A stretch of DNA of 64,000 bases from Patescibacteria group bacterium. GTDB lineage: Bacteria > Patescibacteriota > Minisyncoccia > Phycocordibacterales > EsbW-18. Below are positions 1-26,058 of the stretch, piece by piece. The first letter of the stretch is position 1, and every line of letters starts with the position of its first letter. Under the pieces are notes generated by a model, which ran no database searches, was not told where the DNA came from, and saw only the letters and a list, made by a program, of their open reading frames with translations. The translations under genes and the position numbers were made by a program. The stretch is from NCBI GenBank assembly GCA_038063815.1, contig JBBTUJ010000005.1:4875-68874 (forward strand), read 5' to 3'.

Positions 1-520
1 AGAACTGAACCATTGACGAGATAGGGGGTTATAAAATCAAGAACGTCGCGTGTCGGCTCATACAAATCGCAATCAACATAGACGATTGCCGCTTTGGTAG
101 AACCGATCTTGTGTATCGTCTCATCTCGCTTAGCCCCGACAAGAGTTTCTTCAAAAAAGCCGGGAATAGTTGTCACACCGTTATCTTTTGCACCAACGGC
201 ACGCATCCCCCTCATGAAATCTTCTTCACTGCATGCTCGACCACCCTCGACGAGAATCCCCGTCGTATCATCTTTGCCTGTGGGACGACCAAATCCTTTG
301 AATGAATCAAATGCATAGATATGAAAAGGAGACATACGACGAAGTCGTGCGGCACGAAATATATATTGCGTAACCGCTCCTTGAAAAACACCGAACTCAA
401 AATAGTCCCCTTTGACATGGGTATGTTTCCAAAAATCCAATGCGCGATTGATGATCATGCCTCGCGCCATATTACCTCGGTATTGATACCGAAGGACGAG
501 TTGTTTGAGAAGTCCAATCA
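1..520 (-). CDS. TylF/MycF-like macrocin O-methyltransferase family protein (C-terminal part runs off window start)
   Basis: Minus-strand translation from ATG at 520-518 reads MIGLLKQLVLRYQYRGNMARG...FDSFKGFGRPT...VYVDCDLYEPT, the TylF-type class I SAM methyltransferase signature. The ORF is not in the ORF track because it has no stop inside the window. Confidence 0.55.
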
Positions 521-551
521 TACGGGGGCGATTATAGCACGCACCACAAAA

Positions 552-1577
552 CTACGATCGGGGTCGCTTATGAAGTCCAAGATACTGATACCCACGAACA
601 AGAACGGAACGGCAGTACGCTTGTATGTTTGAGATAAGGTGGAAAACCCGATAGACAAAAGCGTTTTCACTAAAGTCGCCACGCATATACATTGGTATGA
701 CAATACCCATATCGCGGATAGAATTGATTGTTGGGTCAACCGCCGTAACAAGCCTCAACGCGTCTTGAGCGGTATGTAGATAGAGTTGATACATTTCCCA
801 CGAATCCTGTTTCGTGCGACGGCGGTTGAAATCAGAACCCTTGAGTAAGATGTCATGCCAGATACTCTTGTAATGGATAACATGCATTTCGTCAGTAATT
901 GGTTTTGAATTTGTCTCATTGAGAAGCGAGCATGGGAACGCGTGGACTCTAATCGGATGTCCTTTCGTCGAAATTGTGTAATCGGCCTTCGAGGGGTCGT
1001 ACGCAATCATCTCCCAATACGCCATTTGCTCTGGAGCGCCATAGGGGTAGGCACGTGTTGTCGATTGTTCTCGAAGCTCGGGGATGTTGGTGATATGAAT
1101 CGTTCGTTCGTTCAACTCCTCGAGAAACGCGGCAGCGGCTTCTGATGCACGCATGAGGTAGACACCACCATTGAGTGGGTATACTTCACCGGGCTTATGG
1201 GTGAACGCAACGTCGAATGGTATCTCAAAGAAGTGCCTAAGATCTTTTCTGACAAGCATGTCCACATCAAGAAAAACAAAGTTTTCTCCGATATGCTGAC
1301 GAATCGCCTCGGTCCAAAACTTGGGGCGGTTTGCGATACGTTCGATGAAATCGCCCTTGATCGAAGTCCCCGTGTCGACGAACTCGAATTGCGGAAATGC
1401 TTTTTCCAAAAGGCGCGTCCTCGGTGTCACATCATCCCAGAAGATAGTTGCCCGCGCCATCGGATTTGACTTTGAGATTGAGTACAATAAAACCAAAAGC
1501 ATTCCCCCGTACTTCTTCCCATAGACAGATGTCACGAAATGGATTGGTTCCTGTTCATTTTTTTGCATGAAAACCAC
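552..1577 (-). CDS. GT-A fold glycosyltransferase with DXD motif (nucleotide-diphospho-sugar transferase, family uncertain)
   Basis: 341 aa ORF with FVFLDVDMLV (DXD) and a GT8/GT-A-like sequence pattern. Confidence 0.5.
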   Translation of the reverse strand: MVFMQKNEQEPIHFVTSVYGKKYGGMLLVLLYSISKSNPMARATIFWDDVTPRTRLLEKAFPQFEFVDTGTSIKGDFIERIANRPKFWTEAIRQHIGENFVFLDVDMLVRKDLRHFFEIPFDVAFTHKPGEVYPLNGGVYLMRASEAAAAFLEELNERTIHITNIPELREQSTTRAYPYGAPEQMAYWEMIAYDPSKADYTISTKGHPIRVHAFPCSLLNETNSKPITDEMHVIHYKSIWHDILLKGSDFNRRRTKQDSWEMYQLYLHTAQDALRLVTAVDPTINSIRDMGIVIPMYMRGDFSENAFVYRVFHLISNIQAYCRSVLVRGYQYLGLHKRPRS

Positions 1578-1765
1578 TATAGCACGGGATATACAAGCAT
1601 CGTGTACACGCCCGTATTAACAAAAACAAAGAGGTTTGTGGCCACCCGGATCAAAAAGAAAGACCGTAGTACGCCAAAATATGACATGCTATACTCCGCG
1701 CGGACGCCCTTTGGCAGAACTGTCCTAACCAATACCACGAGCCATTTACCCCCAAGGAGACCCCC

Positions 1766-3277
1766 GTGAACAGCGTGTGCCTTATCATTCCACCGTCGGT
1801 GTTCCTCACCGATGAGCGAGTGTTCATGACACTCGGCATCCTCAAGGTCGCCGCGGTGCTTGAGGCCCGCGGTGTTCCAGTTGAGGTCCTCGACCTGTCC
1901 GGCATAAACAACTTCGAAGAGGCCGCCAGAGACCATGCAGCCGCAACAACTGCGACTGTCTTTGGTCTAACGGCAACGACGCCACAACTGCCGGCAACGA
2001 TGGTCATAACCAAAGCCATCCGGTCTGTGCGTAAAGACGCGCGAATCATGCTCGGCGGGCCACACATCACACTGACGAACGCCGCCTACAAACGTGAACA
2101 GACGCACGGAATTCTCGGAGGACGGGCCGTGCCGGCAATGCGACAACTCGTCGAGTCATTCGACGTGCTTGTTGCAGGTGACGGAGAAGATGCCGTCTTC
2201 CTCGCACTGGCAGAAGATGCGCCGCAACTCATCGACGCCGATGATCCTGCGTCACCGCTTTTCCTCACCAATGAGCGCCTCACATCACTTCCGTTCCCCG
2301 CACGTCACCTCGTTGACGTCGGGAGTTACCACTACGCGATCGAGGGCGTTCCAGCCCTTTCCATGATCGCGCAGTTGGGATGTCCATTCGCGTGCGGTTT
2401 CTGTGGCGGAAGGGAATCCGCCATGCTTCGCCGCATTCGAATGCGGACTTCAGAGAACATCGTCGAAGAGATGGTGCACCTCTACACAACGTACGGGTGC
2501 AATGCGTTCATGATGTACGACGATGAACTCAACGTGAACAGAGGGATGCTTGACCTCATGCACCAGATCAGTGAGGCACAGGAGCGCCTCGGTGCGTCCT
2601 GGAAGCTGCGTGGGTTCATCAAGTCCCAACTCTTCACCGACGAGCAGGCATCGGCAATGCACCGAGCCGGATTCCGGTGGATTTTGACCGGGTTCGAGTC
2701 GGGCTCTCCGCGAATCCTGGAGAACATCAACAAGCGGTCAACGCGCGACGAAAACACTCGTTGCGTTGAGATTGCGCGCCGACACAATCTCAAGGTGAAG
2801 GCGCTGATGTCAATCGGACATCCCGGCGAAACGCCGGAAACGGTCGCGGACACAGAGCAATGGCTTGTCGAAGTGGCACCAGACGATTTCGATGTCAGCA
2901 TCATCACGTGTTATCCCGGGACACCCTACTACGATCACGCAGTACGTCATGCGACGCTTCCCGGAGTTTGGACCTACACGTACGAGAAGAATGGTGATCA
3001 ACTTCACCAAATCGAGGTCGACTACGCCACGGTCGCTGACTACTACAAAGGCGACCCCGACGGAGGATACACCGCGTACGTCTTCACTGACGCCCTGTCG
3101 GCAAACGAGCTCGTCGCCGCACGCAATGCCATCGAGCGAAATGTTCGCGCTCGTTTTGGCATCCCGTTCAGTCCGAGCGCTCCCGCGATCAGGTACGAGC
3201 ACTCGATGGGGCAGTTTCCCCCATTCGTTCTGCAGCATCCGCTTCCTGGCGGAACACGGAAGGACAGTTCATCCTGA
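1766..3277 (+). CDS. B12-binding domain radical SAM protein (class B radical SAM, putative C-methyltransferase)
   Basis: 503 aa with an N-terminal Rossmann-like B12-binding region and a CPFACGFC (CX3CX2C) radical SAM cluster motif. GTG start preceded by AAGGAGA 6 nt upstream. The gene is about 60% GC versus roughly 47% in its neighbours. Confidence 0.8.
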   Translation: MNSVCLIIPPSVFLTDERVFMTLGILKVAAVLEARGVPVEVLDLSGINNFEEAARDHAAATTATVFGLTATTPQLPATMVITKAIRSVRKDARIMLGGPHITLTNAAYKREQTHGILGGRAVPAMRQLVESFDVLVAGDGEDAVFLALAEDAPQLIDADDPASPLFLTNERLTSLPFPARHLVDVGSYHYAIEGVPALSMIAQLGCPFACGFCGGRESAMLRRIRMRTSENIVEEMVHLYTTYGCNAFMMYDDELNVNRGMLDLMHQISEAQERLGASWKLRGFIKSQLFTDEQASAMHRAGFRWILTGFESGSPRILENINKRSTRDENTRCVEIARRHNLKVKALMSIGHPGETPETVADTEQWLVEVAPDDFDVSIITCYPGTPYYDHAVRHATLPGVWTYTYEKNGDQLHQIEVDYATVADYYKGDPDGGYTAYVFTDALSANELVAARNAIERNVRARFGIPFSPSAPAIRYEHSMGQFPPFVLQHPLPGGTRKDSSS

Positions 3278-3362
3278 AAACTCGTCGCCACTTCGCGCGA
3301 CGGAGGGCCGCCCAGCGTTGCTGGTCGGCCTTCTCTTTTTATGTACCAAGGACATCATCTTT

Positions 3363-4697
3363 TCAGAGAATGTCGTGTACGCTAAATCCTCCTTGCGCCC
3401 TGATACGCGACACGTAGCCAGTGATTGCGAGAATGAGGAGGAGTGGAGTGATGGGTACCAAAAAACCATTCGCAAGCGATATCGAATCGAAACTTGAGAG
3501 TGTTGCTGTTGAGATGATCGCAACGAAGATGTATACCGTCAGAAGGAATACAAGGAGAGAGAACCCGCGAATCCGTAGCCGGATACATGTCACAAGCGCT
3601 CCAACCAAAACCGCAAGGTGTAGTATGGTGAGCAGAATCTTAACAATAAAAATATTTCGTTCTTTTGGTGAGAAATCTGCAATCCCCTGCTGTCCTCTTA
3701 GAATCTCAACACCACGTTCTTTGTACGAGAATGTCGCGCCACTATCGAGCGTGTGAAGCCCGACAGGAAATGAGAACACCCTCACAAAACCTTCCCGGAA
3801 CATCGGCTCACCGATAGCAAAAAGCGAGCGCGTTGTCTTCCGTATGCTCTCGGGCCTAAGATAGTTCTGCTCACCTTTTGCGATAACAGGCGCAACTGAA
3901 AAATCTTCGTACAGGAATATATTCCTGTATGTCCACGGCAGGATAACGAGAGCGACAGCGGAGCACATGATCGCAACAATCACCACACGTTTTCCTATTC
4001 TCTCCCGCTTTTCTTTTTCACGAACACCATCGACGAGAGCCCACAGGGCGAACACAATAGGCAAGAAAAGGGCGATAACATCAGTAAGCGCGCCGAGACC
4101 GAGAAGGATGCCGCAGACGAGTGCTCGCCAGACACTTTCTTCTTTGAGTGCCCGGATAAAAAAGAAGACCGCGGCCGTAAATACAACGGCATACAAGAGA
4201 GCCGAACTTCCGTGCCGTATCTGAAAGAGGAACGATGGCCACACCGCTGCAAGAAGCGCCACAATCCAAGGGATCCTACCACTTGCCACTTCTTTTGCGA
4301 TCGCATAGATAAGAAGTACGAACACGATGTGGAGCAGTATCTGCGAGATTGCGAGCGCTGTTCCGCTTGACCCGATCGTTAGGTAGATGAACGCGAGGTA
4401 CAAGGGCCAACCCGGAGCGTTCCGACCGAACTCGTGCAGAACAAAATCTCCATCAAGGATATGGTGTGCTGCGGCATCGTAGAGCGGAAAATCTTGATTC
4501 AATCGCAGATCATCTACCCGAGGAACCATGACGCACGTCGCAACAACGCACGCGAGAAGAAGAGCGAGGAGAAGCGCCCGATGATCTCTATACCAATGAT
4601 TCGTACGGTCCATACAAATATGAGCGTGACAGATGTATATGATACACTCGACCGATATATGCAGCCAGACATATCTCGCATCGTCGATGCCCATCAC
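3363..4697 (-). CDS. polytopic membrane glycosyltransferase, GT-C fold (PMT/ArnT-like, GT39/GT83-type), putative
   Basis: 444 aa, multiple hydrophobic helices, N-terminal DDARY motif resembling the loop-1 DE motif of PMT/ArnT enzymes. Start uncertain: the GTG/ATG at 4697 would overlap the divergent gene, and MDRTNHW at 4613 is an alternative. Confidence 0.4.
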   Translation of the reverse strand: MMGIDDARYVWLHISVECIIYICHAHICMDRTNHWYRDHRALLLALLLACVVATCVMVPRVDDLRLNQDFPLYDAAAHHILDGDFVLHEFGRNAPGWPLYLAFIYLTIGSSGTALAISQILLHIVFVLLIYAIAKEVASGRIPWIVALLAAVWPSFLFQIRHGSSALLYAVVFTAAVFFFIRALKEESVWRALVCGILLGLGALTDVIALFLPIVFALWALVDGVREKEKRERIGKRVVIVAIMCSAVALVILPWTYRNIFLYEDFSVAPVIAKGEQNYLRPESIRKTTRSLFAIGEPMFREGFVRVFSFPVGLHTLDSGATFSYKERGVEILRGQQGIADFSPKERNIFIVKILLTILHLAVLVGALVTCIRLRIRGFSLLVFLLTVYIFVAIISTATLSSFDSISLANGFLVPITPLLLILAITGYVSRIRAQGGFSVHDIL

Positions 4698-5246
4698 GGA
4701 TCGTCCTCAGGATTCAGTCGTCACTATCTGACGCTCTATTCGATTATCCTTGGTATAGAAGCGAAGAGTGTGCTTGAGGTTGGTGCCGGATTCTCGACGC
4801 AGACGATACTTGCCGCGCTCAAAGAGACCGGAGGGAAGCTCATGACATTCGATATGCGTGACCTCAAGGGCACCGGCAATCCGGAGAGTCTTCGAACAGA
4901 GTTCGCAAATGCATGGACATACGTGCAGGGAGATACTCGGAATACATTGCACACGATCGAAAAGATGACATTTGACGTGATCCTCCATGACGGATCGCAT
5001 GAGTGGCGTGTCGTTCTGAAAGACCTTCGAAAAATACTCCCGCACATAAAACAGAATGGGCTTCTTCTCGTCCACGACACCGAACACCCGGCATTCCGTC
5101 TCAAATTCGCAACACGGCTCGCGCTCATCGGGTATCGACACGAAATAGTCACGCTCCCCTATGGCTACGGCCTCACGATTGTCCGTATCCTCGGCAACAA
5201 ACGAAACGGCTCAGTGAGAACGACCTGGGAAAAGAACAGAAAATAG
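4581..5246 (+). CDS. class I SAM-dependent methyltransferase (O-methyltransferase-like)
   Basis: VLEVGAGFSTQ motif I and DVILHDGSH. The ORF track starts at 4434, but that extension overlaps the divergent membrane glycosyltransferase gene, so an internal start (4581 or 4620) is more likely. Confidence 0.55.
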   Translation: MISIPMIRTVHTNMSVTDVYDTLDRYMQPDISRIVDAHHGSSSGFSRHYLTLYSIILGIEAKSVLEVGAGFSTQTILAALKETGGKLMTFDMRDLKGTGNPESLRTEFANAWTYVQGDTRNTLHTIEKMTFDVILHDGSHEWRVVLKDLRKILPHIKQNGLLLVHDTEHPAFRLKFATRLALIGYRHEIVTLPYGYGLTIVRILGNKRNGSVRTTWEKNRK

Positions 5247-6089
5247 AAGCGCTGCATACGAGCGAGGTGAAAGCGGCGCGTGCTTCCACACTTCGCACGC
5301 ATACATGCGTGCTTTTGCTTTCATGCCAGCACACGCACACGCGATCGATGTTCCATACACAATCTGTACGTAGCGTGCCTTACATTCTTTTTTGAGAATG
5401 TGACCAAAATCGACAAGAAACGCATCGAGGTGTGGGGCACGATTCGCCGAGCGTGCATAATCGAATTTTTTCCGTCCCTGCGTGAGTGAGCCCGGCGTAT
5501 CAAGAAACACATCCCCCAGCGGTTCCTGAGAATGGAACCACTGACCCTGCGCAGCAAGACGTGCAGCAACGATGAAATCGACATTGCGTGATACATACGG
5601 CGCTTTTAGATACGCATCCTTTCGCGCAAGACGAACCTTCTCGTTATTCCCGAGATATTTGCAGAGAGTTTGTTGAAGTGAGACGTACCCGCTCGTGCGT
5701 ACAGGAAACGGGACCTCCTTGTCCCCGCGCATCATCCGCGCGGGCACTGAAACAACAATGGCATCGGGGTGCGCTTCCACGAGCAAGCGAAGAAAAGCGA
5801 GCGCGTTGGGGTAGAGAGTGTCATCACTGTCCCACACAAGGACGTACTCCCCTTTTGCTTCTTTGATTCCTTGATTGCGCGCAAATGATGCGCCCTTATT
5901 CTCCGGCAATTGAACAGTCCGCAGACGTGAGTCCGTGAATCCGGCAAGGATATCCTTCGTCCCATCCGTCGAACCATCATCAACGACAATGATTTCAAAA
6001 CCCATATCTGTTTGTGAAAGAACGCTCGCAAGACATGCCTGAAGCGTGTGAGATCTATTGTATGTTGCTATGACAATGCTGAGCATCAT
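5211..6089 (-). CDS. glycosyltransferase family 2
   Basis: MLSIVIATYNRSHTLQ...IIVVDDGSTDGT...VWDSDD are typical GT2 motifs. Confidence 0.8.
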   Translation of the reverse strand: MMLSIVIATYNRSHTLQACLASVLSQTDMGFEIIVVDDGSTDGTKDILAGFTDSRLRTVQLPENKGASFARNQGIKEAKGEYVLVWDSDDTLYPNALAFLRLLVEAHPDAIVVSVPARMMRGDKEVPFPVRTSGYVSLQQTLCKYLGNNEKVRLARKDAYLKAPYVSRNVDFIVAARLAAQGQWFHSQEPLGDVFLDTPGSLTQGRKKFDYARSANRAPHLDAFLVDFGHILKKECKARYVQIVYGTSIACACAGMKAKARMYACEVWKHAPLSPRSYAALLFSVLFPGRSH

Positions 6090-7222
6090 ATGTTTTCCGC
6101 AGCTTCTTCTAATACGTTCATGTATTTCTCCGCCACCTTTTCAATACTGAACCCCTTTGCTGTCTTTTGTGCTTCTTGTGCAACGCTATTTCTTTTCTCT
6201 ACAGACAAGTGAGCAACATGCGCGAGCGTGGTAGCAACACTTTCTGGAGTATGTTCAATGAAGAAACCGTTGATCCCCTCGCGTATATACTCGTTAACAC
6301 CGGCAATCCTCGTCGAGAGAACAGGGAGACCGAATGCGATTGCTTCAAGCACAGCATTAGGTCCACCTTCATGCCGCGACGAGAGCACAAAGATGTCCGC
6401 CGCAGCATAAAAAGCATACGCATCGTCACGGTGTCCTAATAACTTTACAAAAGGAAGACCGCCCCGAAGAGAGAGTAGCCGCTCGAGATTCGATCGCTCT
6501 ATCCCATCTCCCAAGATAACCAAAACGTACTCCGGATTTTCTTTGTGGAATGTAAGAAAACCTTCAATGAGAAGCGCCTGATTTTTTTGAGGTTTAAGCC
6601 GACCCACGTTAAGAACTATTTTTTTCTCTTTCGTTAAACCAAGCTCTGCTCGAAGACGCGCCACCACCTCTTCAGACCCCACCCTAAAGTGCTCAATCTC
6701 ATCGACATCAACCCCGTTCAAAATCACAAGAAATTTTGACAAAGGGATACAAGCTTGTTTACTTGCAAATTCTGCAACCACTGCAGATATGGCAATAATT
6801 CGGTATGACATGTAGGAAAGTACATGATCAATCACTTTTTGAAAAAAATTCTTCTCAATATATGTGTTATGTTCCCGAGTGATGCTCGTGTAGCCAAAAA
6901 ATGGCTTTAAAAGGCGGAATATTGTATTCGCCCAAAAGGCACTCGACACCACGACGTGAGGTTTCGCCCTACGTAGAGACGCGAACAATTTCCTCCACAT
7001 GGCAAAGTCCAGATTGGAGGTAAAGGTCAATCGCACTACTTTCACTTCGGGTGGGAGCTGATGATAAAGGGTTTTTTTGTCAGGGTATTCAAAAAAGGTG
7101 AAGAGGGAGACATCGAACATCTCATAGTCATACACCCTCATCTGCTTCAGCAATTGTCGTTCTGTTCCGCCCACAACAAAGCTTGGAAGCGCAAATACGA
7201 CCCGAATCTTTTCTTTTCTCAT
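6086..7222 (-). CDS. glycosyltransferase family 4
   Basis: EGGPNAVLEAIAFGLPVLSTRIAGVNEYI (GT4 E-X7-E region). The N-terminal extension in the ORF track (to 7432) is implausible, and MRKEKIRVVF at 7222 is the likely start. It overlaps the downstream GT2 by 4 nt. Confidence 0.8.
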   Translation of the reverse strand: MRKEKIRVVFALPSFVVGGTERQLLKQMRVYDYEMFDVSLFTFFEYPDKKTLYHQLPPEVKVVRLTFTSNLDFAMWRKLFASLRRAKPHVVVSSAFWANTIFRLLKPFFGYTSITREHNTYIEKNFFQKVIDHVLSYMSYRIIAISAVVAEFASKQACIPLSKFLVILNGVDVDEIEHFRVGSEEVVARLRAELGLTKEKKIVLNVGRLKPQKNQALLIEGFLTFHKENPEYVLVILGDGIERSNLERLLSLRGGLPFVKLLGHRDDAYAFYAAADIFVLSSRHEGGPNAVLEAIAFGLPVLSTRIAGVNEYIREGINGFFIEHTPESVATTLAHVAHLSVEKRNSVAQEAQKTAKGFSIEKVAEKYMNVLEEAAENI

Positions 7223-7274
7223 GAAATTGACTATATCCTTCAGAAATGATGAACACAATGGTACTCTTAGAATA

Positions 7275-8207
7275 ATGTCTACCCACAAGAGAGAGAGTAG
7301 AGAAAACACCGTCTCAGTTGGCCTTATTGGAATCGGCCCGTGGGGAATGAAACTTGCCTCACGATTCGATGCACAGGCAAATCTGCGAGGATTCACTGCG
7401 AAAGGAAATGCGGAGAGAGTCGAGATCTTCAAAAAAGAATTCCCCTCTGTTACCCACTACTCAAGTACCGAGGCTCTTTTAGAGGATACAAGCATCCAAG
7501 CAGTTGTGATCGCGACACCAATCGAAACACACTTCGAGATGGCCCGCTTGGCGCTCAACCACGGAAAACATGTTTTTGTAGAAAAACCCGCCGCACTCGA
7601 CCAGACGAGCGTACGCGAGCTCATCGGACTCGCCCAGAAGCATAACCGGGTACTCTTTACTGGCTACACATTCCTCTATCATCCCGTGTACAAGCACCTG
7701 CGAGAGTTGATAAAAGATACACCCCCGCAACGCATCATCTTCTCATGGCAGAAGCTCGGGAGCTTCCGAGAATCCGGCATCCTCAATCTCATCTGCCACG
7801 ATGTGGCGCTTTTCGCTGATCTCGTGGGCGAGCTTCGGGGAAGCCACATCTTCTTTCGGGCCGATATCATCGGTAAGGACGATATTGCCCAGATAGGGTC
7901 TTCATTCGGAACTGCCGGATCAGCACTCTTCACAATCAACCGTGTGTTCCCCGGAATACCGACGAAATCCGTCGTCGTGATGACCGATTCTGAAACCTAT
8001 GTATGGGAAAATGATGCCTTGTACAAAGCATCCGATGGATCGCTTCATGACATCACGGAGAAGGTCATCGCATCGCAACCGCTCGAGCAAGAATGCTCGC
8101 ACTTCCTCGAACGTGTCGCCGAGGACACATACTGGTCTCGCTCTGACGGAGTTCACGATATGGAAGTTGCTCGTTTCTTTGAGGAAGTCATGCCGCCATC
8201 GGCTTAA
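7275..8207 (+). CDS. Gfo/Idh/MocA family NAD(P)-dependent oxidoreductase
   Basis: VGLIGIGPWG Rossmann motif, EKP motif and the overall pattern. Likely start MSTHKRE at 7275, divergent from the GT4 gene. Confidence 0.75.
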   Translation: MSTHKRESRENTVSVGLIGIGPWGMKLASRFDAQANLRGFTAKGNAERVEIFKKEFPSVTHYSSTEALLEDTSIQAVVIATPIETHFEMARLALNHGKHVFVEKPAALDQTSVRELIGLAQKHNRVLFTGYTFLYHPVYKHLRELIKDTPPQRIIFSWQKLGSFRESGILNLICHDVALFADLVGELRGSHIFFRADIIGKDDIAQIGSSFGTAGSALFTINRVFPGIPTKSVVVMTDSETYVWENDALYKASDGSLHDITEKVIASQPLEQECSHFLERVAEDTYWSRSDGVHDMEVARFFEEVMPPSA

Positions 8208-10091: not shown

Positions 10092-10112
10092 ACAAGATAG
10101 TATAGTTGTTTT

Positions 10113-10835: not shown

Positions 10836-10842
10836 GTGTCCT

Positions 10843-11880
10843 CTACGATATCACACGCTCGATAACGCGCTTCAGGTCTTCCGCGATCTTCTCGGGAGTC
10901 CCGCGTGACATAAAAAGTTCGTATCCACCACCACCAATCCGCTTTGCAAGACCTGAGTCGTCGCGGAGAGAAAGTACCGCACGCGCAAGGTCATTCGAAT
11001 CTCCTGGAATACAGAGAAGAACGTTCTGCCCATCCTGTGCAATCTCTTCTATCGCCTCAGTACGTGCGGTAACAACAGGCTTCCGACATGCCCACGCCTC
11101 ATACACTTTGTTGGGAATAACGAGATGTATTTTGTGAGTCGTCCCGGCAATACCGATCGATACATCCGCTCGATTGATATATTCACGAAGATCTTCGTAC
11201 AGAACATCATCATGAAAAGATACCTCTGGATATTCCTTCTCATACATCCGCTTTATGCTTGTGCCAACAACTGAGATCTGTATCCCCTGTGCTGAAAGCA
11301 TCTTCCCCGCAGCAAGTACGGTAGGAACACCATGAAGCGGAATGTTCGTTCCGTGAAAGTGGACCGTGAAAGGGTGTGGCGACGAGGAATCATTTGCATC
11401 CGGATAAAAAACCGACGGATCGGATCCGACAAGAATGCGATGACTCCGTTCTGGGTCACACCCGAATTTGTTCACAAAAAAGTCGCGGTGGGCGAATGTG
11501 TCAAAAAGATATGCGTGCGCAAGGTGACATGAGAGAAGATCGAGGAGATAGTAGTATGCCGCGTGCAGACCTACACGTGAGTATTTCTGTCGGTCATCAA
11601 CAAGCGTCATGTGTAAAGAGAAAAACGGATCAAAAATAATCTTCTTTGACGATATAAGTCGCGCTAGTATGAGTGCCTGCTGTCCCGGAAACGCAACGAA
11701 CATGATGTCGTACCTGCCACGAATCTGAGCGTGCTTCCGAATGAGGTCTCTGTATTTTCCTACTCCCTTTTTGTTTGTTCTGCATTCGACAACTGTGTGC
11801 CCGCTTAACTCAAATGCACGCTTGAGGATGCGGTTCCTGGGGTAGGTGGGATCATAAATCCCAAAAAAACATATCTTCAT
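10843..11880 (-). CDS. GT-B fold glycosyltransferase (GT1/GT4-like)
   Basis: 345 aa with a GT-B pattern. It overlaps the upstream GT4 gene by 4 nt. Confidence 0.6.
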   Translation of the reverse strand: MKICFFGIYDPTYPRNRILKRAFELSGHTVVECRTNKKGVGKYRDLIRKHAQIRGRYDIMFVAFPGQQALILARLISSKKIIFDPFFSLHMTLVDDRQKYSRVGLHAAYYYLLDLLSCHLAHAYLFDTFAHRDFFVNKFGCDPERSHRILVGSDPSVFYPDANDSSSPHPFTVHFHGTNIPLHGVPTVLAAGKMLSAQGIQISVVGTSIKRMYEKEYPEVSFHDDVLYEDLREYINRADVSIGIAGTTHKIHLVIPNKVYEAWACRKPVVTARTEAIEEIAQDGQNVLLCIPGDSNDLARAVLSLRDDSGLAKRIGGGGYELFMSRGTPEKIAEDLKRVIERVIS

Positions 11881-12935
11881 ATATGCGCGTCGTTCAAAAT
11901 ACCAACCATCCGCTCTATGAGAGATTGGAGACGATGTTCCGATGCAATCTTTTGGACCAACACACGCAAGGATTGGAACTCTCCATCGCTACGTTGTGCC
12001 ATTTGTAGAAGTGCATTTGCAAGTGTTTGGGCGTCACCTTGAGGAAATGCGACGACACCGGGCCGACCGACGCTCACTGAAAGCGTTCCCTCATTACACG
12101 TCACGACAGGAAGACCTGCCGCCATCGCTTCAAGAGGAGCCTTATCAAGCGCGCCCGTCGTGCTAGCGCTCACAAACACGTGTGCCTTATGAAGATACGG
12201 GAGAATATCCTTTTGGGGGACAGGCCCAACAAATGTTATTTTCTCTGACAAACCGAGTTCTTTCACTCGATCGTGAAGTTTCTTTTCATATGCTACCTGG
12301 TCCGGCGTTCCGGGTCCGCCGATGATAGAAAGAATGATTGAAGTTCCACGCTCCGTAACAATACGGATTGCGTCGATGAGTGTCTCATATCCTTTTACCC
12401 GAGAGATCCTACCGAATGTTACTACGCGGAGAACATCGCGCGGGAGGATTTCGGTAGAAGGAATGAATCGTTCCAGATCGATGCCGTGGCCGACAATGTG
12501 CGTTTTGTTCGATTGAATACGAAAGCTCTCTGTGGTCGATGTAAAAATATCGTGAGCAAGAATGGTGGCGAGGCGAAGTGAGGCGCTGACCGATCCGTGG
12601 GTATACCAAAGACCGATACGTTTCTTGAGTGCGCGCCACACAACACCACCTAAAACCACATAGATTGGGTTCATGTGTACAAAAACCGCGTCATAGTTTT
12701 TTCTTTCCCGCCATATATATGCATAGAACCGACGCAGGTATTTGAAGTGCGAGGGGCCCTTTTCTTTTCCGAGAGAAAGGACATGAACATTCTTTGGAAG
12801 CGCGTGCACGCCTTCATACAAACAGATGACGACTACCGACTCGCACTTTTGTGCAAACTCTTCAATCCATCGGTGAAAAAATCCGAGATTGTCATCTGCG
12901 CTATCAACTTTTTGTGTAAGGATAAGAAGTTTCAT
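11877..12935 (-). CDS. glycosyltransferase family 4
   Basis: RISRVKGYETLIDA...LEAMAAGLPVV, with 4 nt overlaps to both neighbours. Confidence 0.8.
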   Translation of the reverse strand: MKLLILTQKVDSADDNLGFFHRWIEEFAQKCESVVVICLYEGVHALPKNVHVLSLGKEKGPSHFKYLRRFYAYIWRERKNYDAVFVHMNPIYVVLGGVVWRALKKRIGLWYTHGSVSASLRLATILAHDIFTSTTESFRIQSNKTHIVGHGIDLERFIPSTEILPRDVLRVVTFGRISRVKGYETLIDAIRIVTERGTSIILSIIGGPGTPDQVAYEKKLHDRVKELGLSEKITFVGPVPQKDILPYLHKAHVFVSASTTGALDKAPLEAMAAGLPVVTCNEGTLSVSVGRPGVVAFPQGDAQTLANALLQMAQRSDGEFQSLRVLVQKIASEHRLQSLIERMVGILNDAHI

Positions 12936-14071
12936 CTTCGGGAACTGACGAATTCAACCAGCGGACGCTGATAATCAAGAACGGTCTTTCCTCCATACTC
13001 TTTTTGGAACGCCTCTTTGATATTCCGTGAAAACCCTTCAAGAACATCCCTGTGTGAAGAGAGGTGTGTGATTTTTTCTGCATACGCTTCAGATTTTGCT
13101 TCCTGAGAAAGCACGTACCCTGTTTTTTCATCCATAACGAGGCCCTTGATTCCACCAACCTCTGCAGCAATAACAGGCATACCAGCAACAGCCGCTTCCA
13201 TGAATACGCGGGGGAATCCTTCATAGCGGGATGGCAAGAGAAGTACATGATGCGAAGAAAAGAGTCCTACAATATCGTGACGCGACACAACACCGCGCAT
13301 ATCGCACACACCATCAAGACCGCGTCGGTGTACCTGTTGTTCAAACCACGCACGCTCTCTACCCTTGCCGACAATAGTAAACCGCACACCGTTCCCCGTC
13401 GCACGTTTTGTTGTATCAATGATTTCGAGCAGAAGAGGAATATTCTTCTGCAAAACGAACCTTCCCATAAACAAAATCCTGAACGGAGATTCCGAGAGAT
13501 TCCTGGACAACGTCTGCAAAGCATCGAGATCCGTTGGCATCATCGGTTTGAAAAAAACTTTCTTACCATATTCTTCTTTAAGACGCTCCACGGTTTCAGG
13601 ACCATCTGTCTGGATCGCATCCGCCCTCTTGAGAACATGCGGTGCAAGAAGCGTATAGAATCTATGTTTGAGTGATTCCGTTCGAATAAAGACGTTGTGT
13701 ATGTCTGTACCAAAAACACCAGCAACCATGGGTATGTGAAAATGTTTTCCCACCAAGAGTCCTACCAGACCAAAAAGAAATGGGTCTTGTGTGATGATGC
13801 TCCCGGGGCGGATTTTCCTTACAACACGCCCAAGTGTTGTGGATACCCTTAAAAGACCGAGAAGTTTTGATCGGTACGGGACAGGATGCACAAAAACCCG
13901 CGGGAGAACTTCTCGCACTTCACGAAGCGGTGTCGGCGCTGAGAGTATCACGTGCACCGACGCGTAGAGTTCTGTGTACACCTGCATACGACGTGCCGTG
14001 TCACTTGTTGCGTCACCGACAGAGGCGTCGGTCGAGAGCATTACTACGGGTTGTTTTTCTAATGAGGGCAT
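12932..14071 (-). CDS. glycosyltransferase family 4
   Basis: EGFPRVFMEAAVAGMPVIAAEVGGI. The alternative start MLSTDAS at 14041 would avoid overlap with the upstream gene. Confidence 0.8.
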   Translation of the reverse strand: MPSLEKQPVVMLSTDASVGDATSDTARRMQVYTELYASVHVILSAPTPLREVREVLPRVFVHPVPYRSKLLGLLRVSTTLGRVVRKIRPGSIITQDPFLFGLVGLLVGKHFHIPMVAGVFGTDIHNVFIRTESLKHRFYTLLAPHVLKRADAIQTDGPETVERLKEEYGKKVFFKPMMPTDLDALQTLSRNLSESPFRILFMGRFVLQKNIPLLLEIIDTTKRATGNGVRFTIVGKGRERAWFEQQVHRRGLDGVCDMRGVVSRHDIVGLFSSHHVLLLPSRYEGFPRVFMEAAVAGMPVIAAEVGGIKGLVMDEKTGYVLSQEAKSEAYAEKITHLSSHRDVLEGFSRNIKEAFQKEYGGKTVLDYQRPLVEFVSSRR

Positions 14072-15078
14072 AGGGCAAGAAATTCGTGTGCGATATCTTT
14101 GTACGAGTGGATGAATGAAAGTGCGCGGACACGGAGGGCATACTCACGATAGTGGGTTTCGTCAGCAAGCGTCAGAAATGCGTTCGCTATTTCGTCTTCA
14201 TTAAGAGGGTCTACCAAAAATGCCGCGTTCCCAATACGATTTGTTATACCATTTTCACGAGTTAAAATGACTGGTTTTCCAAATGAGAGAGCTTCAAGAA
14301 TAAAGTTCGGTCCTATATCTCCGAGAGACACGAGAACCGCAGCATAACAATTTTTGAGTGCTTCGATAACTTCATCGTGTGGACGATTAAACCGAAGCGT
14401 GAGCGATATGCGCGGGAATTTCTCTTGTGCTTTTTTGAATGCGCGCTCTAATGTGTCCGTATTTTTCCACTTAAGATCTCGGACTATGCATACAAAATTT
14501 TTCTCTGCATCGGGAGATGGTGTTTCTACGACAGACACCGGCTCATAATTGTTCTCAATGACTGAAACCTTTGTTGAATCGACGATATATACAGGAACCC
14601 AGATATCACGCTGATATGTCGTATTAAATACGATTTTGTCCATTTGTTTCAATGCCCATCGCGTCAGTGTAAAAACCATTTTTTCTTTTTGTGTAAAATT
14701 TCGTTCTGCGCTATAAAATTCTGAAAAGAGTATTTTTTCTCCTGTCCGCTCCACATACTGCTCCCATAAAAAATCACCTCCCGTTCGAAGGATGACGTGC
14801 CCACCAAATATCTTTCTAAGAAGCGCCACCGGAAGACCGACGCTAAACGTGTCAAGTGTAATCGTTATATCCGCACGTATGAATCCCAAGATAGATTTTA
14901 AAAAATAGACAGCGTGGCGGATTCCCGTCGGAAGATGGTGCTCAATCGTGTATGTCCGCACAAAAACAGTATGCCCAAGAGATTCAAGGGCTGCTTTAAG
15001 TTGTGATGCGTAATGTCCCGTTCCCCCGGTCTTTGGGGGATAGATTCCTGTCGCAATAAGGATACGCATGCTTTTCAT
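14059..15078 (-). CDS. glycosyltransferase family 4
   Basis: MKSMRILIATGIYPPKTGGTGHY. The ORF track begins at 15135, but MKSM at 15078 is the likely start. Confidence 0.75.
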   Translation of the reverse strand: MKSMRILIATGIYPPKTGGTGHYASQLKAALESLGHTVFVRTYTIEHHLPTGIRHAVYFLKSILGFIRADITITLDTFSVGLPVALLRKIFGGHVILRTGGDFLWEQYVERTGEKILFSEFYSAERNFTQKEKMVFTLTRWALKQMDKIVFNTTYQRDIWVPVYIVDSTKVSVIENNYEPVSVVETPSPDAEKNFVCIVRDLKWKNTDTLERAFKKAQEKFPRISLTLRFNRPHDEVIEALKNCYAAVLVSLGDIGPNFILEALSFGKPVILTRENGITNRIGNAAFLVDPLNEDEIANAFLTLADETHYREYALRVRALSFIHSYKDIAHEFLALCPH

Positions 15079-15178: not shown

Positions 15179-15667
15179 TTAGGCGATGCACATCCGGAGG
15201 AGAGGTGCGAACTTCTGGTTGCCGCTCAACGCAGCGATCTCACGGGCCTCGTCGAGCGTCATGAGACCAGCATTGACTGCCGCGACAAGAACAACCGCTT
15301 CATCGGCGTCCTCGGGGAGACCCGAGAATGCCATCACGAGGTTCTTAGCCGCACGAATCCCCCCGCCCCACTCGTTGCGTTCCGGATTGCGGCTCTCCGC
15401 GCTTGACCGAAGATTGTCCTGGATGATGCGCAAAACCTTCTCCACACAGTAGTCGACCGAGGGAGAGGTTGGTGGAACGTATCCTAGGCGCATCTTGAAG
15501 GGCATCCAGAGTTCCCCCCTCTTGTCTTTGCACCAGTTGAGAAAGAACCACCCCGCAATCTTCCTTCCCCTCTCGGAATCCTCGGTGAGACCATTCGCAA
15601 TGGCCACATCCAGGATCCGAGGGAGTGATCCGAGGATCTGACCCACGTGATCGAGCGTTGCGCGCAC
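15179..15667 (-). CDS. hypothetical protein (GC-rich islet inside the glycosyltransferase cluster)
   Basis: 162 aa ORF with a GTG start. The region is about 58-60% GC against roughly 45% neighbours. A GC hairpin plus U-tract lies downstream at about 15092-15131. No family recognised. Confidence 0.35.
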   Translation of the reverse strand: MRATLDHVGQILGSLPRILDVAIANGLTEDSERGRKIAGWFFLNWCKDKRGELWMPFKMRLGYVPPTSPSVDYCVEKVLRIIQDNLRSSAESRNPERNEWGGGIRAAKNLVMAFSGLPEDADEAVVLVAAVNAGLMTLDEAREIAALSGNQKFAPLLRMCIA

Positions 15668-15743
15668 CGTTGCACCAAACCTTTCCCCCCGATCAATGTC
15701 GGGGCTTGTCTAGACAAGATAATACGTAATGGGGAAGGTTATG

Positions 15744-16964
15744 TCAAATAACTTTCACAAAAACTTTTTCACGCATATCGCGCGCGACAGTGTCCCATCC
15801 GTATTTTACTCGAACCATCTCGCGCGCATTTTTTACAATCTTCTTGCGGAGTACATCATTCTCCATGAGCCGCACGACGGCACTTGCAATCGATTCGGGG
15901 TTTTTTACTTCACAAAACAATCCCGTCGGCGCTACCTTCCCCAGCGGGCTTTCGGGGTCTATCAAAAAATCGGGAATGCCACCGACGCGCGTTGCGACAA
16001 TTGGAATTCCGGCTGCCATTGCCTCAAGAAAACTCGAACCCATTCCTTCGGAGAGTGCTGGACGGACGAAGATGTCTGATACTTGGAGGTATGCGGGAAC
16101 GAGGTCTGTGTCTACTTGGCCGCAGAACCGCACGCGTTTTTGAAGTCCTTTGGACACGACTTCCTTCCACAATCGCTCCCCAAGAGGACCCGCGCCTAAA
16201 ACTAAAAATTTCACGCGCTCCGGCAATTTTGAAAGTGCTGCAATAACATCTCCAAGTGCATTCTTCTCAACAAGGCGTGATGTTGTCACGAGATATACTT
16301 CGTTCGGTTTCTTATTGAGGGCATAGATAAGTTTGTTTGTTTCTTTTGTATGCTTTGTACTTGCAAATCTTTCAAACTCAACTCCATTCGGAATAACAAC
16401 CGGCTCTCCGGGGTATCCCATGTCTTTTGCAAACTGTGCGAGATATTTTGAAATTGCCTGTACGACCGTTGCTTCAGTAAAAATGCGTTTCAAGAGTCCG
16501 GAAAAAAGACGGATGCGGCGGCGTTTCGTGATGTATTCCGTCGTGTCACCATCTTGGAGTGTCAAAATATACGGAGTCATATCCCGAAAAAATTTCCGCA
16601 ACAAAACCACGGGAAATCCCATATTTGTCATAAGAGACCAGTATGCATTGTAGGGTTTCCCCCGCGAAAGGGAGCACGCCTTCAAAACGGCGAGTGGCAC
16701 ATACAGAACCTTCACGAGATACCACGGGAAGCGGGAAAGATCTTCGAATGTAATCCCTTTTTTTGACGGGCCGATACGGTGAATCGTCACATTCCCAACC
16801 CTCTCAATACGTGGAAGGTTCGCGTCCGCGCGAAGAGCGATGAGGTCAAATTCTATCTCCTCCTTTGAGATCTGGTCCGTGATGAATCGCACGGCCATCT
16901 CCGCCCCACTCTCGTAGGGATGGTACATGAGAGAAAAGATGAGGATGCGCTTGGTTGCCATCAA
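15744..16964 (-). CDS. glycosyltransferase family 4
   Basis: EGMGSSFLEAMAAGIPIVATRVGGIPDFL. Confidence 0.8.
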   Translation of the reverse strand: MMATKRILIFSLMYHPYESGAEMAVRFITDQISKEEIEFDLIALRADANLPRIERVGNVTIHRIGPSKKGITFEDLSRFPWYLVKVLYVPLAVLKACSLSRGKPYNAYWSLMTNMGFPVVLLRKFFRDMTPYILTLQDGDTTEYITKRRRIRLFSGLLKRIFTEATVVQAISKYLAQFAKDMGYPGEPVVIPNGVEFERFASTKHTKETNKLIYALNKKPNEVYLVTTSRLVEKNALGDVIAALSKLPERVKFLVLGAGPLGERLWKEVVSKGLQKRVRFCGQVDTDLVPAYLQVSDIFVRPALSEGMGSSFLEAMAAGIPIVATRVGGIPDFLIDPESPLGKVAPTGLFCEVKNPESIASAVVRLMENDVLRKKIVKNAREMVRVKYGWDTVARDMREKVFVKVI

Positions 16965-16991
16965 GGCATCATACCATGCAGTTGTTTTGCT

Positions 16992-18341
16992 TCATGAAGA
17001 CGCTTCTGTCACCTCAATAATCGTGAACGCGTGTGCTGGCGGAAGGCCTGTACCTGAACCGACATCTTTTCTTGTTCTCTGCGTTGTCAAAAAACCAAGA
17101 AGAGCAAGGGTACTTACAATAAGCGTTCCGGCAAGAATATACGGCAACACGCTTTCTGTATGAGACGCTGTCGGAACAACTTCTTCAACATACCCAAGCA
17201 CCTTATTTTCTACTACGGCGTTTGGTTCGTATGTGGCGGCTTTTTTGCCACCGGGATAGAGAAGTTCTACGCGGTCCTCTTTTTGTGGCAAAAGTTCGGT
17301 TACTTCTTCAGGAAACTTCACTGCACTTCGAGGTGCGATCAGAGTATCATCAGGAAACGTGAATGTGTCTCGTGATTTGCTTCCTTTCTCGTACTCAATG
17401 TGTATCTGCCAGCGTGAAAGGTCGAGTTCCGTTTCCGCGCCGTTCGCGACCTCGATGTATCCGCCGTTTCCCCAATCAATGTCGCTTAAGCGGACTTCTG
17501 CTGGAACCGCCGTCACCATGAGCTTATCCTTCGCCCTTTGATTGTCTCCAGAGACATTGAGAACAACCGTATACGTGCCAGGTTTTCGATACGTGTGCGC
17601 TTCTTCTTTTCCTTTTCCCTTTCCACCATCTCCAAATGACCATGCGTAGTTCGCCGCGGAGATTCGTATGTTTTTATCGCTCACGCCATACCCCTCAAAC
17701 AACGCCTGTGCCCCAACCGTCACAAGACGGTCTTCACCTGCATAGGCAAAAACGACCTGCTTATATCCACCCGTTATTGTTTTCTTGGCAGTTGTGCTCG
17801 AGGAGCTCGAGGAAGAAGTAGATGTTCCCGCAACTTCTCCCCCGGTATCCTCCGTGCTGTTAATCGCCTTTGGTGTCGGAACGCCTGTTATCCACGTCCC
17901 ATCGGCCTGACGTTGAGCTGTGTGTTTTGTTGTGTTGTTTCCGCCGAGATTCTCCCAGTTCGCGCCGCCTGAGGCCGTATCGACGACAACACCATCTTTA
18001 TCGAGAATCTTCAATGTCTCGCCCGTATTTCCCAAATCGCCCGTATATATCTTGTCTGCAGGAATTCCAGAAACACTTTCATCGTCTGTCCGTTCAAGTA
18101 AATAATAGCCACTAGCGGATATCGAACCAGAAAGCGCTATTGACGGACTTCCATCCTCTGCGATAAGTTTCCACCCAGTGAGTGAAACGAGATCTGCGCC
18201 ATCGTTCACGATCTCAATCCATTCATCTGTTGCTGACGTTACAGTTCCCATCCAAGCAACTTCGTTTATAAAAAGGGCTGCAAATGTTTGCGTTGGTGCG
18301 AGCGCCACAAACAAAACAAAAAGAAAAAGCTTCCGTTTCAT
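16992..18341 (-). CDS. secreted/anchored surface protein with two lamin-tail domains flanking a PKD domain
   Basis: N-terminal signal peptide MKRKLFLFVLFVALAPTQTFA. LTD-like LFINEV...WIEIVN and RLSDIDW...YIEVANG segments. PKD-like WSFGDGG...HTYRKPGTYTVVLNVSGDN segment. Poly-Ser/Thr stretch TSTSSSSSSSTT. C-terminal TM helix. Confidence 0.7.
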   Translation of the reverse strand: MKRKLFLFVLFVALAPTQTFAALFINEVAWMGTVTSATDEWIEIVNDGADLVSLTGWKLIAEDGSPSIALSGSISASGYYLLERTDDESVSGIPADKIYTGDLGNTGETLKILDKDGVVVDTASGGANWENLGGNNTTKHTAQRQADGTWITGVPTPKAINSTEDTGGEVAGTSTSSSSSSSTTAKKTITGGYKQVVFAYAGEDRLVTVGAQALFEGYGVSDKNIRISAANYAWSFGDGGKGKGKEEAHTYRKPGTYTVVLNVSGDNQRAKDKLMVTAVPAEVRLSDIDWGNGGYIEVANGAETELDLSRWQIHIEYEKGSKSRDTFTFPDDTLIAPRSAVKFPEEVTELLPQKEDRVELLYPGGKKAATYEPNAVVENKVLGYVEEVVPTASHTESVLPYILAGTLIVSTLALLGFLTTQRTRKDVGSGTGLPPAHAFTIIEVTEASS

Positions 18342-26046: not shown

Positions 26047-26058
26047 CACTAAACTCTG

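Follow-up and report, generated by a model that had tools for sequence, protein, structure and literature searches.

Introduction

Among described systems, the locus reported here comes nearest to the Gram-positive gene clusters for S-layer glycosylation (slg), such as wsa of Geobacillus stearothermophilus and wsf of Paenibacillus alvei. Our subject is a glycan-biosynthesis gene island that begins within positions 1-18341 of a 64,000-nucleotide stretch of DNA from a Patescibacteria group bacterium (contig JBBTUJ010000005.1, positions 4,875 to 68,874; this whole stretch is hereafter the window), together with the adjoining gene for a secreted surface protein containing lamin tail domain (LTD) and PKD modules, the LTD protein. 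As in the slg clusters, the host is a monoderm, the glycosyltransferase (GT) genes form a tight array with overlapping stop and start codons, and the array is accompanied by sugar O-methyltransferase genes and by a membrane transporter for a lipid-linked glycan. The Gram-positive S-layer O-oligosaccharyltransferases WsaB and WsfB carry a Wzy_C domain, and WsfB, like PglL, has C-terminal TPR repeats (PMC2943079); the Wzy_C-TPR protein of the window lineage has the same architecture and is predicted to have the same activity. The slg systems add an extra branching sugar by a lipid-phosphate-sugar route, and the structural gene of the target, the S-layer gene, can adjoin its glycosylation cluster (PMC2943079), and both features have possible parallels in our locus. 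In contrast to the slg clusters, however, our locus contains neither rml nor other nucleotide-sugar genes and no initiating transferase of the WsaP type, it encodes Wzx rather than a Wzm/Wzt ABC transporter, and its neighbor is a small three-domain protein that is not a known S-layer protein. It also has far more methyltransferases, and a B12-radical S-adenosylmethionine (SAM) enzyme, a predicted modification capacity.

The PglL/PilO O-oligosaccharyltransferases and WaaL share with the window-lineage protein the Wzy_C domain and a multi-span membrane organization, with TPR repeats in PglL as in WsfB, and in some lineages the Wzy_C-TPR gene adjoins genes for secreted candidate substrates. In the window-lineage protein no PglL_A motif was detected, and it has no sequence match to solved structures. 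Glycans can also be attached by membrane glycosyltransferases of the GT-C fold: in streptococci, PgtC2 and PgfM1 glycosylate disordered, Ser/Thr-rich regions that lie outside the cytoplasm (PMC11092751). The streptococcal GtrB+PgtC2 and PgfS/PgfM1/PgfE/PgfM2 systems resemble our locus in combining outside-facing GT-C catalytic residues with secreted or membrane proteins that possess Ser/Thr-rich disordered linkers (PMC11092751). In those systems the GT-C enzyme is paired with an undecaprenyl-phosphate-sugar synthase of the GtrB/PgfS type and single sugars are added, whereas the GT2 enzyme of the window is not of the synthase type and its locus is predicted to encode a multi-sugar lipid-linked pathway. 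The GT39 O-mannosyltransferases and ArnT (GT83) have in common with the window GT-C enzyme the fold, an N-terminal transmembrane (TM) helix followed by an acidic outside loop, and PMT_2 kinship. The window enzyme differs in being only 416 amino acids (aa) long, in lacking the PF02366, MIR and PMT_4TMC domains and an ArnT family match, and in having no polyprenol-phosphate-mannose synthase (a GT2 of the Ppm1/DPM1 type) as a partner in the locus.

Patescibacteria, or candidate phyla radiation (CPR) bacteria, have a lifestyle of attachment to other microbes, and recognition of the host is thought to depend on their surface structures. To our knowledge, almost nothing is known about the glycans and glycoproteins of the patescibacterial envelope, for which this locus is relevant, as it is for host attachment. 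In a full-text search the terms "lamin tail domain" and "Patescibacteria" did not occur together in any paper, and a broader literature search returned only the incidental mention of an LTD protein as the neighbor of a CRISPR locus. A surface-glycan gene cluster is an ordinary, known kind of object, and the novelty of this one is its presence in a phylum that has been little studied. Of more interest is a by-product of the analysis, a conserved frame consisting of a VirD4-like ATPase, the LTD protein, a GT4 core, Wzx and Wzy_C-TPR. We consider the chances slightly better than even that this region represents the variable middle, here expanded, of a surface-glycan locus, held in this conserved Paceibacteria-type CPR frame and operating through a lipid-linked pathway of the Wzx/ligase type.

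Results and discussion

The window is chromosomal DNA of a member of the Patescibacteria from Hainich groundwater, containing a 16S rRNA gene, tRNAs, tmRNA, a ribosomal-protein operon, SecY, FtsH and RecG. The exact LTD protein is recorded as a lamin tail domain-containing protein of Patescibacteria group bacterium and is present also in the metagenome-assembled genome (MAG) GCA_964355065.1. Positions 1-18341 hold 17 tightly packed open reading frames (ORFs), all at or near the coordinates given in an earlier, sequence-based reading of this DNA (the original prediction), and the domains assigned there to a 17-gene glycan-biosynthesis island are borne out. Pfam agrees on TylF, the B12-radical-SAM enzyme, one GT2, one GT-B and five GT4 glycosyltransferases, a Gfo/Idh/MocA and an FAD oxidoreductase, and it identifies the three predicted class I SAM methyltransferases as one Methyltransf_24 and two Methyltransf_11/23/25 proteins. 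By its domain content the region is thus confirmed as a genuine glycan-biosynthesis island rich in methyltransferases, and NCBIfam gave no equivalog-level match for any island protein. Three of the genes (1826-3277, 4620-5246 and 7275-8207) lie on the plus strand, and the predicted 4-nt overlaps are real at four sites, 6086-6089, 11877-11880, 12932-12935 and, for a convergent pair, 8204-8207.

The island does not end at the window edge. Contig L086 (related sequences are designated here by L numbers) comes from the 0.1-µm fraction of Hainich groundwater well H41; it matches window positions 1-11568 with 100% identity, and the island can be read on it for about 4.5 kb past window position 1. 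Beyond TylF it encodes a 267-aa Methyltransf_24-like protein, then Wzx on the opposite strand, and then a 734-aa Wzy_C+TPR protein, so that the distance from the LTD start codon to the Wzy_C-TPR stop codon is about 22.9 kb. Gene calls on the identical L086 also begin further downstream than several of the longest ORFs, whose starts are therefore upstream extensions; the corrected coordinates are 1826-3277 for the radical SAM enzyme, 3363-4613 for GT-C, 4620-5246 for Methyltransf_24, 6086-7222 for GT4a and 7275-8207 for the Gfo/Idh/MocA protein. A search for horizontal transfer by composition gave no obvious signal, the GC content being 0.47-0.545 compared with about 0.49 for the window.

The comparison covered more than 170 related loci. 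The LTD-PKD-LTD family is common in Paceibacteria-type CPR bacteria (232 word-index matches), with 582 confirmed loci in species-representative genomes, against 80 of which the window proteins were compared by tblastn. The recurrent order in these 80 loci is RsmI, DUF4015, VirD4-like ATPase, LTD, GT4e, GT4d, GT4c and GT4b, and the full frame continues through a variable middle to Wzx, Wzy_C-TPR and MurB or SecA. The LTD gene is a recurrent, operon-like neighbor of the first four GT4 genes across the Paceibacteria. GT4e (15744-16961, minus strand; Pfam 109.7 bits) heads the array and is its most conserved glycosyltransferase, with 4,478 homologs at E<=1e-30 and about 50% identity across CPR classes; GT4b, GT4c and GT4d (11877-15078, minus strand; assigned by Pfam) have syntenic orthologs in about 16 genomes that are 24-56% identical. 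The most conserved neighbor of the LTD gene and the GT4 array (in L006-L085, L171, L172 and L176) is the orphan VirD4/TrwB-like ATPase, identified by Pfam and synteny at 18387-20372 on the minus strand. It possesses no TM segment by hydropathy, has a 430-aa core that is up to 86% identical between CPR classes and ends in a 230-aa low-complexity tail. Upstream of it in the frame is the membrane-anchored, glycoside hydrolase-like DUF4015 protein (20849-22096, minus strand; Pfam 287.8 bits).

The middle of the locus varies among lineages. It holds the GT-C enzyme, methyltransferases, the B12-radical-SAM enzyme and the oxidoreductases; the distal methyltransferases, GT2, GT-C and TylF are common only to L002, which is collinear with the window island except that an FkbM methyltransferase replaces the radical SAM gene and that the Gfo/Idh/MocA and DAO oxidoreductases and a 162-aa ORF are absent. 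L102 is a compact version of the whole island (LTD, GT4e, GT4d, GT4c, GT4b, an FkbM methyltransferase, Wzx and Wzy_C-TPR). Six contexts centered on GT4e (L171 to L176) were sampled as well. The complete Campbellbacteria genome L171 adds TylF, three further methyltransferases and a GT47 to the same frame, and the minimal frame, L172, consists of VirD4, LTD, GT4e, GT4d, a fused GT4c/b, a further GT4, Wzx, Wzy_C-TPR, MurB and SecA with gaps of 1-12 nt. L175 encodes a shorter, LTD-only protein, and L173 and L174 are paralogous contexts. Whether the island would prove conserved or variable in relatives had been left open by the original prediction, and both descriptions hold in part: the frame and GT4 core are conserved and the middle is lineage-variable. 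In this the locus resembles O-antigen, capsule or protein-glycosylation loci, in which a variable middle lies between conserved flanks.

In other CPR glycan clusters (L005, L174 and L175) the GT4e-like genes repeatedly have as a neighbor a gene of the CofD family, which is 2-phospho-L-lactate transferase-like, and the cluster of L174 also carries PIG-L deacetylase and ATP-grasp genes. The MAG contig L001 (GCA_964355065.1, CAYHBV010000014.1) breaks inside GT4e, at the edge of the island, ending at window position 15868, and fragments from other samples (L090) are 99.3% identical; both are consistent with strain-level variation in the island.

From the observed gene content, folds and families, locus extent and conservation of the frame, we infer a model in which each biochemical step, and the acceptor, is a prediction. 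Eight cytoplasmic glycosyltransferases (five GT4, one GT-B, one GT2 and one DXD-containing GT-A-like enzyme) would build a hetero-oligosaccharide on a polyprenyl-phosphate carrier. The conservation of the four GT4 genes adjoining LTD suggests that they would make a conserved inner core glycan, and the lineage-specific nature of the remaining glycosyltransferases, the methyltransferases, the radical SAM enzyme and GT-C suggests a strain-specific, methylated outer part. As many as five SAM methyltransferases would modify the sugars, together with the two oxidoreductases and the B12-radical-SAM enzyme, and the PMT_2-type GT-C may add another sugar from a polyprenyl-phosphate-sugar donor. The conserved Wzy_C+TPR enzyme encoded outside the window would then move the finished glycan en bloc to an envelope acceptor, for which the candidates are disordered, Ser/Thr-rich stretches in secreted proteins, the LTD protein linker among them. 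A conserved frame enclosing a hypervariable middle of glycosyltransferases and methyltransferases provides a concrete locus for strain typing, glycopeptide metaproteomics and work on a candidate monoderm O-oligosaccharyltransferase in a heterologous host.

The Wzx flippase (L086 12504-13751; Pfam Polysacc_synt, 44.8 bits) and the Wzy_C-TPR protein both lie beyond the window. In the latter the Wzy_C domain (PF04932, 68.6 bits) occupies residues 207-359 and the TPR repeats approximately residues 530-725. At least 441 full-length relatives, 35-51% identical, turned up when metagenome contigs were scanned with this protein. In about 19 of 80 such loci the upstream neighbor of Wzy_C-TPR is a divergent Wzx gene, and MurB, SecA or Fmt usually lies downstream. 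No Wzz/CpsCD co-polymerase was detected in the window, L086, L002, L171 or L172, and no LCP gene was found in the island (window, L002 and L086). Because Wzy_C-TPR is conserved while the adjoining glycosyltransferases vary, and because it is found without Wzz/CpsCD or LCP proteins, the genomic evidence favors a ligase or oligosaccharyltransferase with relaxed glycan specificity rather than a repeat-unit polymerase. A strict WaaL role was excluded, the organism having no lipopolysaccharide.

Several observations weigh against the proposed lipid-linked, ligase-type pathway. The Pfam Wzy_C domain occurs in true polymerases too, so that the domain alone fits either a ligase or a polymerase. Searched against the sequences of the Protein Data Bank (PDB), Wzy_C-TPR gave matches to its TPR region only and none to the membrane part, with no solved WaaL or PglL among them, and its hydropathy is ambiguous at residues 379-414, so we assign no side of the membrane to the TPR repeats. 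Neither a Glycos_transf_4 nor a Bac_transf domain, the signatures of an initiating phosphoglycosyl transferase (WecA/WbaP), was present in the window ORFs scanned or in the L086 gene calls, and there is no polyprenyl-phosphate-sugar synthase beside GT-C, the sole GT2 of the island not being GtrB-, ArnC- or PgfS-like. The missing initiating transferase or GT-C donor synthase may be encoded elsewhere in the genome. The PglL_A motif (PF15864) was not reported for Wzy_C-TPR at E<=0.01; this motif was defined on proteobacterial enzymes, and PilO also is without PglL motifs (PMC3643930).

The gene directly after Wzy_C-TPR (L087 7366-10776/L086 16638-19169), outside the left edge of the window, encodes a secreted protein of at least 1137 aa that contains 22% Ser/Thr, 12% Gly and repeated GIGTTTP-like motifs and belongs to no Pfam family. 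At the same position L002 encodes a 1478-aa Peptidase_S74 protein. The giant secreted protein was rejected as a conserved target, since most lineages have MurB, SecA or Fmt downstream of Wzy_C-TPR.

The membrane glycosyltransferase encoded at 3363-4613 on the minus strand, which is 416 aa long, had been predicted to be PMT/ArnT-like and to form, with the Ser/Thr-rich surface protein, a classic GT39/GT83 arrangement for protein O-mannosylation. Its fold is that of the GT-C class, as modeled by AlphaFold on a shallow alignment (pLDDT 62, pTM 0.66). Confident Foldseek matches of the model (probability about 1.0) are STT3/PglB/AglB, ArnT, Pmt1/2/4, Emb, AftA and ALG3/9, ArnT (5f15) being matched with E=0.066 and a TMq of 0.40; none of the confident matches is a ligase or transporter, the identities that the original prediction, which placed the gene at 3363-4697, had named as alternatives. 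Pfam matches the protein to PMT_2 (PF13231) with 40.9 bits compared with a cutoff of 26.1, and weakly to GT87. Asp41, which lies in the first outside loop after a positively charged N terminus and TM helix 1, is nearly invariant in a 60-sequence alignment. The likeness to PMT and ArnT thus holds for the fold and the PMT_2 match and goes no further: PMT_2 is the only PMT-type match, the Pfam search finding no PF02366, MIR or PMT_4TMC domain, and no NCBIfam family was matched at E<=0.01, ArnT models included. A word-index search gave only five relatives; when 1.8 billion representatives were searched with a profile, 43,825 passed E<=1e-3 and 989 passed E<=1e-30, mostly compact proteins of 400-490 aa. 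Across 60 family members PMT_2 is present in 59 and the true PMT domain PF02366 in 13. A search against PDB chains, which assigned no subfamily, gave no match with the single sequence and only a weak AglB match with the 60-sequence profile. Membership of the window enzyme in GT39 or GT83 is not supported.

The GT2 enzyme (5211-6086, minus strand; Pfam Glycos_transf_2, 119 bits) resembles EpsD/WcaA/TuaG-type enzymes over its first 100 residues. Its NCBIfam scores are 88 bits for EpsD, 36 for PgfS and 29 for ArnC, all far below the cutoffs, which are at least 500 for ArnC and PgfS. Because this enzyme is not of the GtrB/ArnC/PgfS type, the pairing of GT-C with a donor synthase, the defining feature of O-mannosylation and of the streptococcal systems (PMC11092751), is missing from the locus. 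GT-C, moreover, belongs to the lineage-variable part, approximately 12 kb from the LTD gene, and is shared with one close relative only (L002, 55% identical). With a PMT_2 match only, no donor synthase and a GT-C gene in the variable part, the proposed classic arrangement is not supported.

The LTD protein (16992-18341, minus strand) is a secreted, C-terminally anchored protein, described here from Pfam, AlphaFold and a family alignment. Behind the signal peptide Pfam finds LTD (PF00932, 64.3 bits) and PKD_4 (PF18911, 55.9 bits). In the AlphaFold model (36 homologs; pLDDT 82), residues 2-14 form the signal helix, residues 22-160, 195-280 and 283-372 three beta-sandwich domains, and residues 400-426 a TM helix. 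A disordered Ser/Thr linker at 169-190 contains TSTSSSSSSSTT, and there is another disordered stretch. The predicted architecture of two LTD domains, a PKD domain, signal peptide, Ser/Thr stretch and anchor is therefore recovered by Pfam and AlphaFold apart from the second LTD, which folds as a beta-sandwich in the model and scores 29 bits when the C-terminal domain is searched alone, below the cutoff of 34.3. In the family alignment the LTD proteins of the closest relatives are without the C-terminal membrane anchor. The linker peptide is GEVAGTSTSSSSSSSTTAK, with a 12-residue Ser/Thr run, and no other real ORF of the window encodes a stretch of 12 residues in which Ser and Thr number 8 or more. 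Within the Ser run there is an exact 9-bp tandem duplication (TCCTCGAGC twice, window 17796-17813). The length of the Ser run varies among close relatives. Foldseek returned only generic tandem Ig-like matches, hence we make no S-layer claim for this protein.

Is the LTD protein the acceptor of the glycan? Its exposed, disordered Ser/Thr linker and the repeated adjacency of its gene to the GT array in different genomes speak for it, and so does the spacing of the genes. The gap between LTD and GT4e is 27-30 nt here and 12 nt in L172, and this spacing of 12-30 nt in several genomes suggests co-transcription; a scan for promoters and terminators between VirD4, LTD and GT4e gave nothing decisive, bracketing only the 162-aa ORF. 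About half of the LTD orthologs, on the other hand, have no adjoining glycosyltransferases, many ortholog linkers are acidic instead of Ser/Thr-rich, and the missing anchor of the closest relatives and the equally frequent link of LTD to VirD4 also count against an acceptor role. The Ser/Thr fraction of the linker is 0.41 in GT-adjacent compared with 0.33 in non-adjacent orthologs (Mann-Whitney p=0.06), and for the densest 12-residue Ser/Thr window the same comparison gives p=0.036; being a weak trend only, it was not used as support. The original prediction had named as refuting evidence related genomes that keep the GT genes but have no surface protein at this locus, and at least one such genome exists: in L176, GT4e and another eight GT4 genes come straight after RsmI, DUF4015 and VirD4, and the LTD gene is missing. 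These nine consecutive GT4-type genes (L176 10001-19564) are an extreme expansion of the locus. Because L176 keeps the VirD4-GT4 array without LTD, and because linker Ser/Thr content tracks GT adjacency only weakly, the LTD protein is a candidate acceptor and not an obligatory target. Of the suggested methylated glycan on this protein, the methyltransferases are there in number, and the same two observations speak against the attachment; that the LTD protein is a glycosylation target seems to us doubtful.

Three other explanations have to be weighed. According to one, the GT-C enzyme is PMT/ArnT-like and itself O-glycosylates the LTD linker ("O-mannosylation") from a polyprenyl-phosphate sugar, the other enzymes extending and methylating the glycan. 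It draws on the fold, the PMT_2 match and the conserved Asp41 in the first outside loop, on the disordered, extracytoplasmic Ser/Thr tract that only the LTD protein has in this window, and on the precedent of streptococcal PgtC2 and PgfM1 (PMC11092751). We nevertheless consider it very improbable: a glycan already on a secreted protein would be beyond the reach of the cytoplasmic GT4 enzymes, PF02366, MIR, PMT_4TMC and ArnT models are unmatched, the GT2 partner is not GtrB/PgfS/ArnC-like, GT-C is 12 kb away in the variable part and co-occurs with LTD only here and in L002, and LTD orthologs with Ser/Thr-rich linkers exist without adjoining glycosyltransferases (L039 and L054). If there is a route to protein glycosylation, the Wzy_C+TPR enzyme outside the window is the more plausible one. 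Another proposal is that of an ordinary Wzx/Wzy locus for a cell-wall or capsular polysaccharide not linked to protein, with Wzy_C-TPR as the repeat-unit polymerase, GT-C adding side-chain sugars and the LTD protein a mere neighbor or polymer binder. Glycosyltransferases, methyltransferases and Wzx are the typical content of polysaccharide loci, source records label GT4e "glycosyltransferase involved in cell wall biosynthesis", and relatives have insertions between LTD and GT4e that comprise sugar-nucleotide genes, a deacetylase gene and a FemAB-like gene; the GT array without LTD in L176, the MurB gene adjoining Wzy_C-TPR and the hydrolase-like DUF4015 gene of the frame fit as well. Yet the locus contains no Wzz/PCP co-polymerase, LCP ligase or export component, Wzy_C-TPR is 35-51% identical across lineages with differing GT content, unlike Wzy polymerases, and the close LTD-GT4e spacing in several genomes suggests that the two are co-transcribed; we think this proposal unlikely.

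The remaining alternative concerns the LTD gene only and is compatible with either glycan model. The LTD protein may be a partner of the orphan VirD4-like ATPase, for example in surface attachment or in the translocation of DNA or protein, and its adjacency to glycosyltransferases would then be inherited gene order. VirD4 is upstream of LTD in 20 of the 35 loci with enough upstream flank, and the 25 loci with both flanks (VirD4 plus GT4 block in 11, VirD4 only in 3, GT4 only in 2, neither in 9) have VirD4 in 14 and GT4 in 13, so that LTD is linked equally often to either; in L172 the VirD4-LTD gap is 1 nt. Patescibacterial homologs of the type IV coupling protein (T4CP) are mostly orphan, away from virB4, and their role is unknown (PMC12102498). 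Against this pairing, VirD4 occurs without LTD in L176 and L146, the ATPase has no membrane segment and no other component of a type IV secretion system (T4SS) is adjacent, and we regard the pairing as possible but improbable. A bolder idea, which we hold to be a little less probable still, joins the VirD4-like ATPase, LTD, the four GT4 enzymes, Wzx and Wzy_C-TPR in one CPR-specific unit that displays a glycosylated surface protein or layer, with the LTD protein as its dedicated glycoprotein or scaffold. Such a unit, if real, would give Patescibacteria their first defined envelope glycoprotein system; its glycan would combine a conserved core with a methylated outer part that varies between strains.

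Other genes of the island and the window

At the left edge, the TylF-family O-methyltransferase gene (1-521, minus strand; Pfam TylF, 39.8 bits) is cut by the window boundary; the complete 225-aa protein is encoded by L086 11048-11725. It is followed at 552-1568 on the minus strand by the gene for a 338-aa GT-A-like glycosyltransferase, which is 47% identical to the product of a 334-aa gene at the equivalent position of L002. The protein (552-1577 in the Pfam search), which had been predicted as a DXD glycosyltransferase, does contain a DVD motif, and its only family match, Nucleotid_trans/GT8, is below the cutoff at 19 bits. The plus-strand gene at 1826-3277 encodes a B12-binding radical SAM enzyme with a CPFACGFC (CxxxCxxC) motif. 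With both Pfam domains above cutoff (B12-binding 49.9 bits, Radical_SAM 78.4 bits) it qualifies as a class B (cobalamin-dependent) radical SAM enzyme, with no equivalog assignment in NCBIfam, and it is probably a C-methyltransferase or a sugar-modifying enzyme.

The Methyltransf_24 class I SAM methyltransferase is encoded at 4620-5246 on the plus strand (Pfam 69 bits), and GT4a at 6086-7222 on the minus strand (Pfam Glycos_transf_1, 115.6 bits). Next come the Gfo/Idh/MocA sugar oxidoreductase (7275-8207, plus strand; Pfam 72.5 bits), which weakly resembles UDP-GlcNAc 3-dehydrogenase, and the DAO-family FAD-dependent oxidoreductase (8204-9301, minus strand; Pfam DAO, 48 bits). The two class I SAM methyltransferases at 9285-10091 and 10113-10835 (minus strand; Pfam Methyltransf_23/11/25) have L002 orthologs that are 52% and 66% identical, respectively, and a GT-B glycosyltransferase (Glyco_trans_1_4, Pfam 58 bits) is encoded at 10843-11880 on the minus strand. 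The 162-aa ORF at 15179-15667 (minus strand), which has no Pfam or NCBIfam match, lies between GT4e and GT4d in this genome only and is missing there in all of the relatives compared. It is bracketed by a strong promoter-like site at 15747-15719 (11/12 matches) and a hairpin with a T-run at 15133-15105, which gives it the appearance of a recently inserted gene that is transcribed on its own.

Elsewhere in the window, a second TraG/VirD4-like protein of 913 aa (46202-48943, minus strand) adjoins a 990-aa ORF without a Pfam family (49246-52218, minus strand), and this pair (46202-52218) may be part of a T4SS-like machinery of Patescibacteria. The 16S rRNA gene (27096-28852, minus strand) measures 1757 nt compared with the 1533 positions of the model, which implies an insertion of about 220 nt. 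It is followed only by tRNA-Ile(GAT) and tRNA-Leu(CAG) (26058-26345, minus strand), and there is no 23S gene in the window, so that the rRNA genes seem not to be linked. At 34750-34822 on the plus strand there is a gene for tRNA-Ile(TAT), whose anticodon is an unusual means of reading AUA in bacteria.

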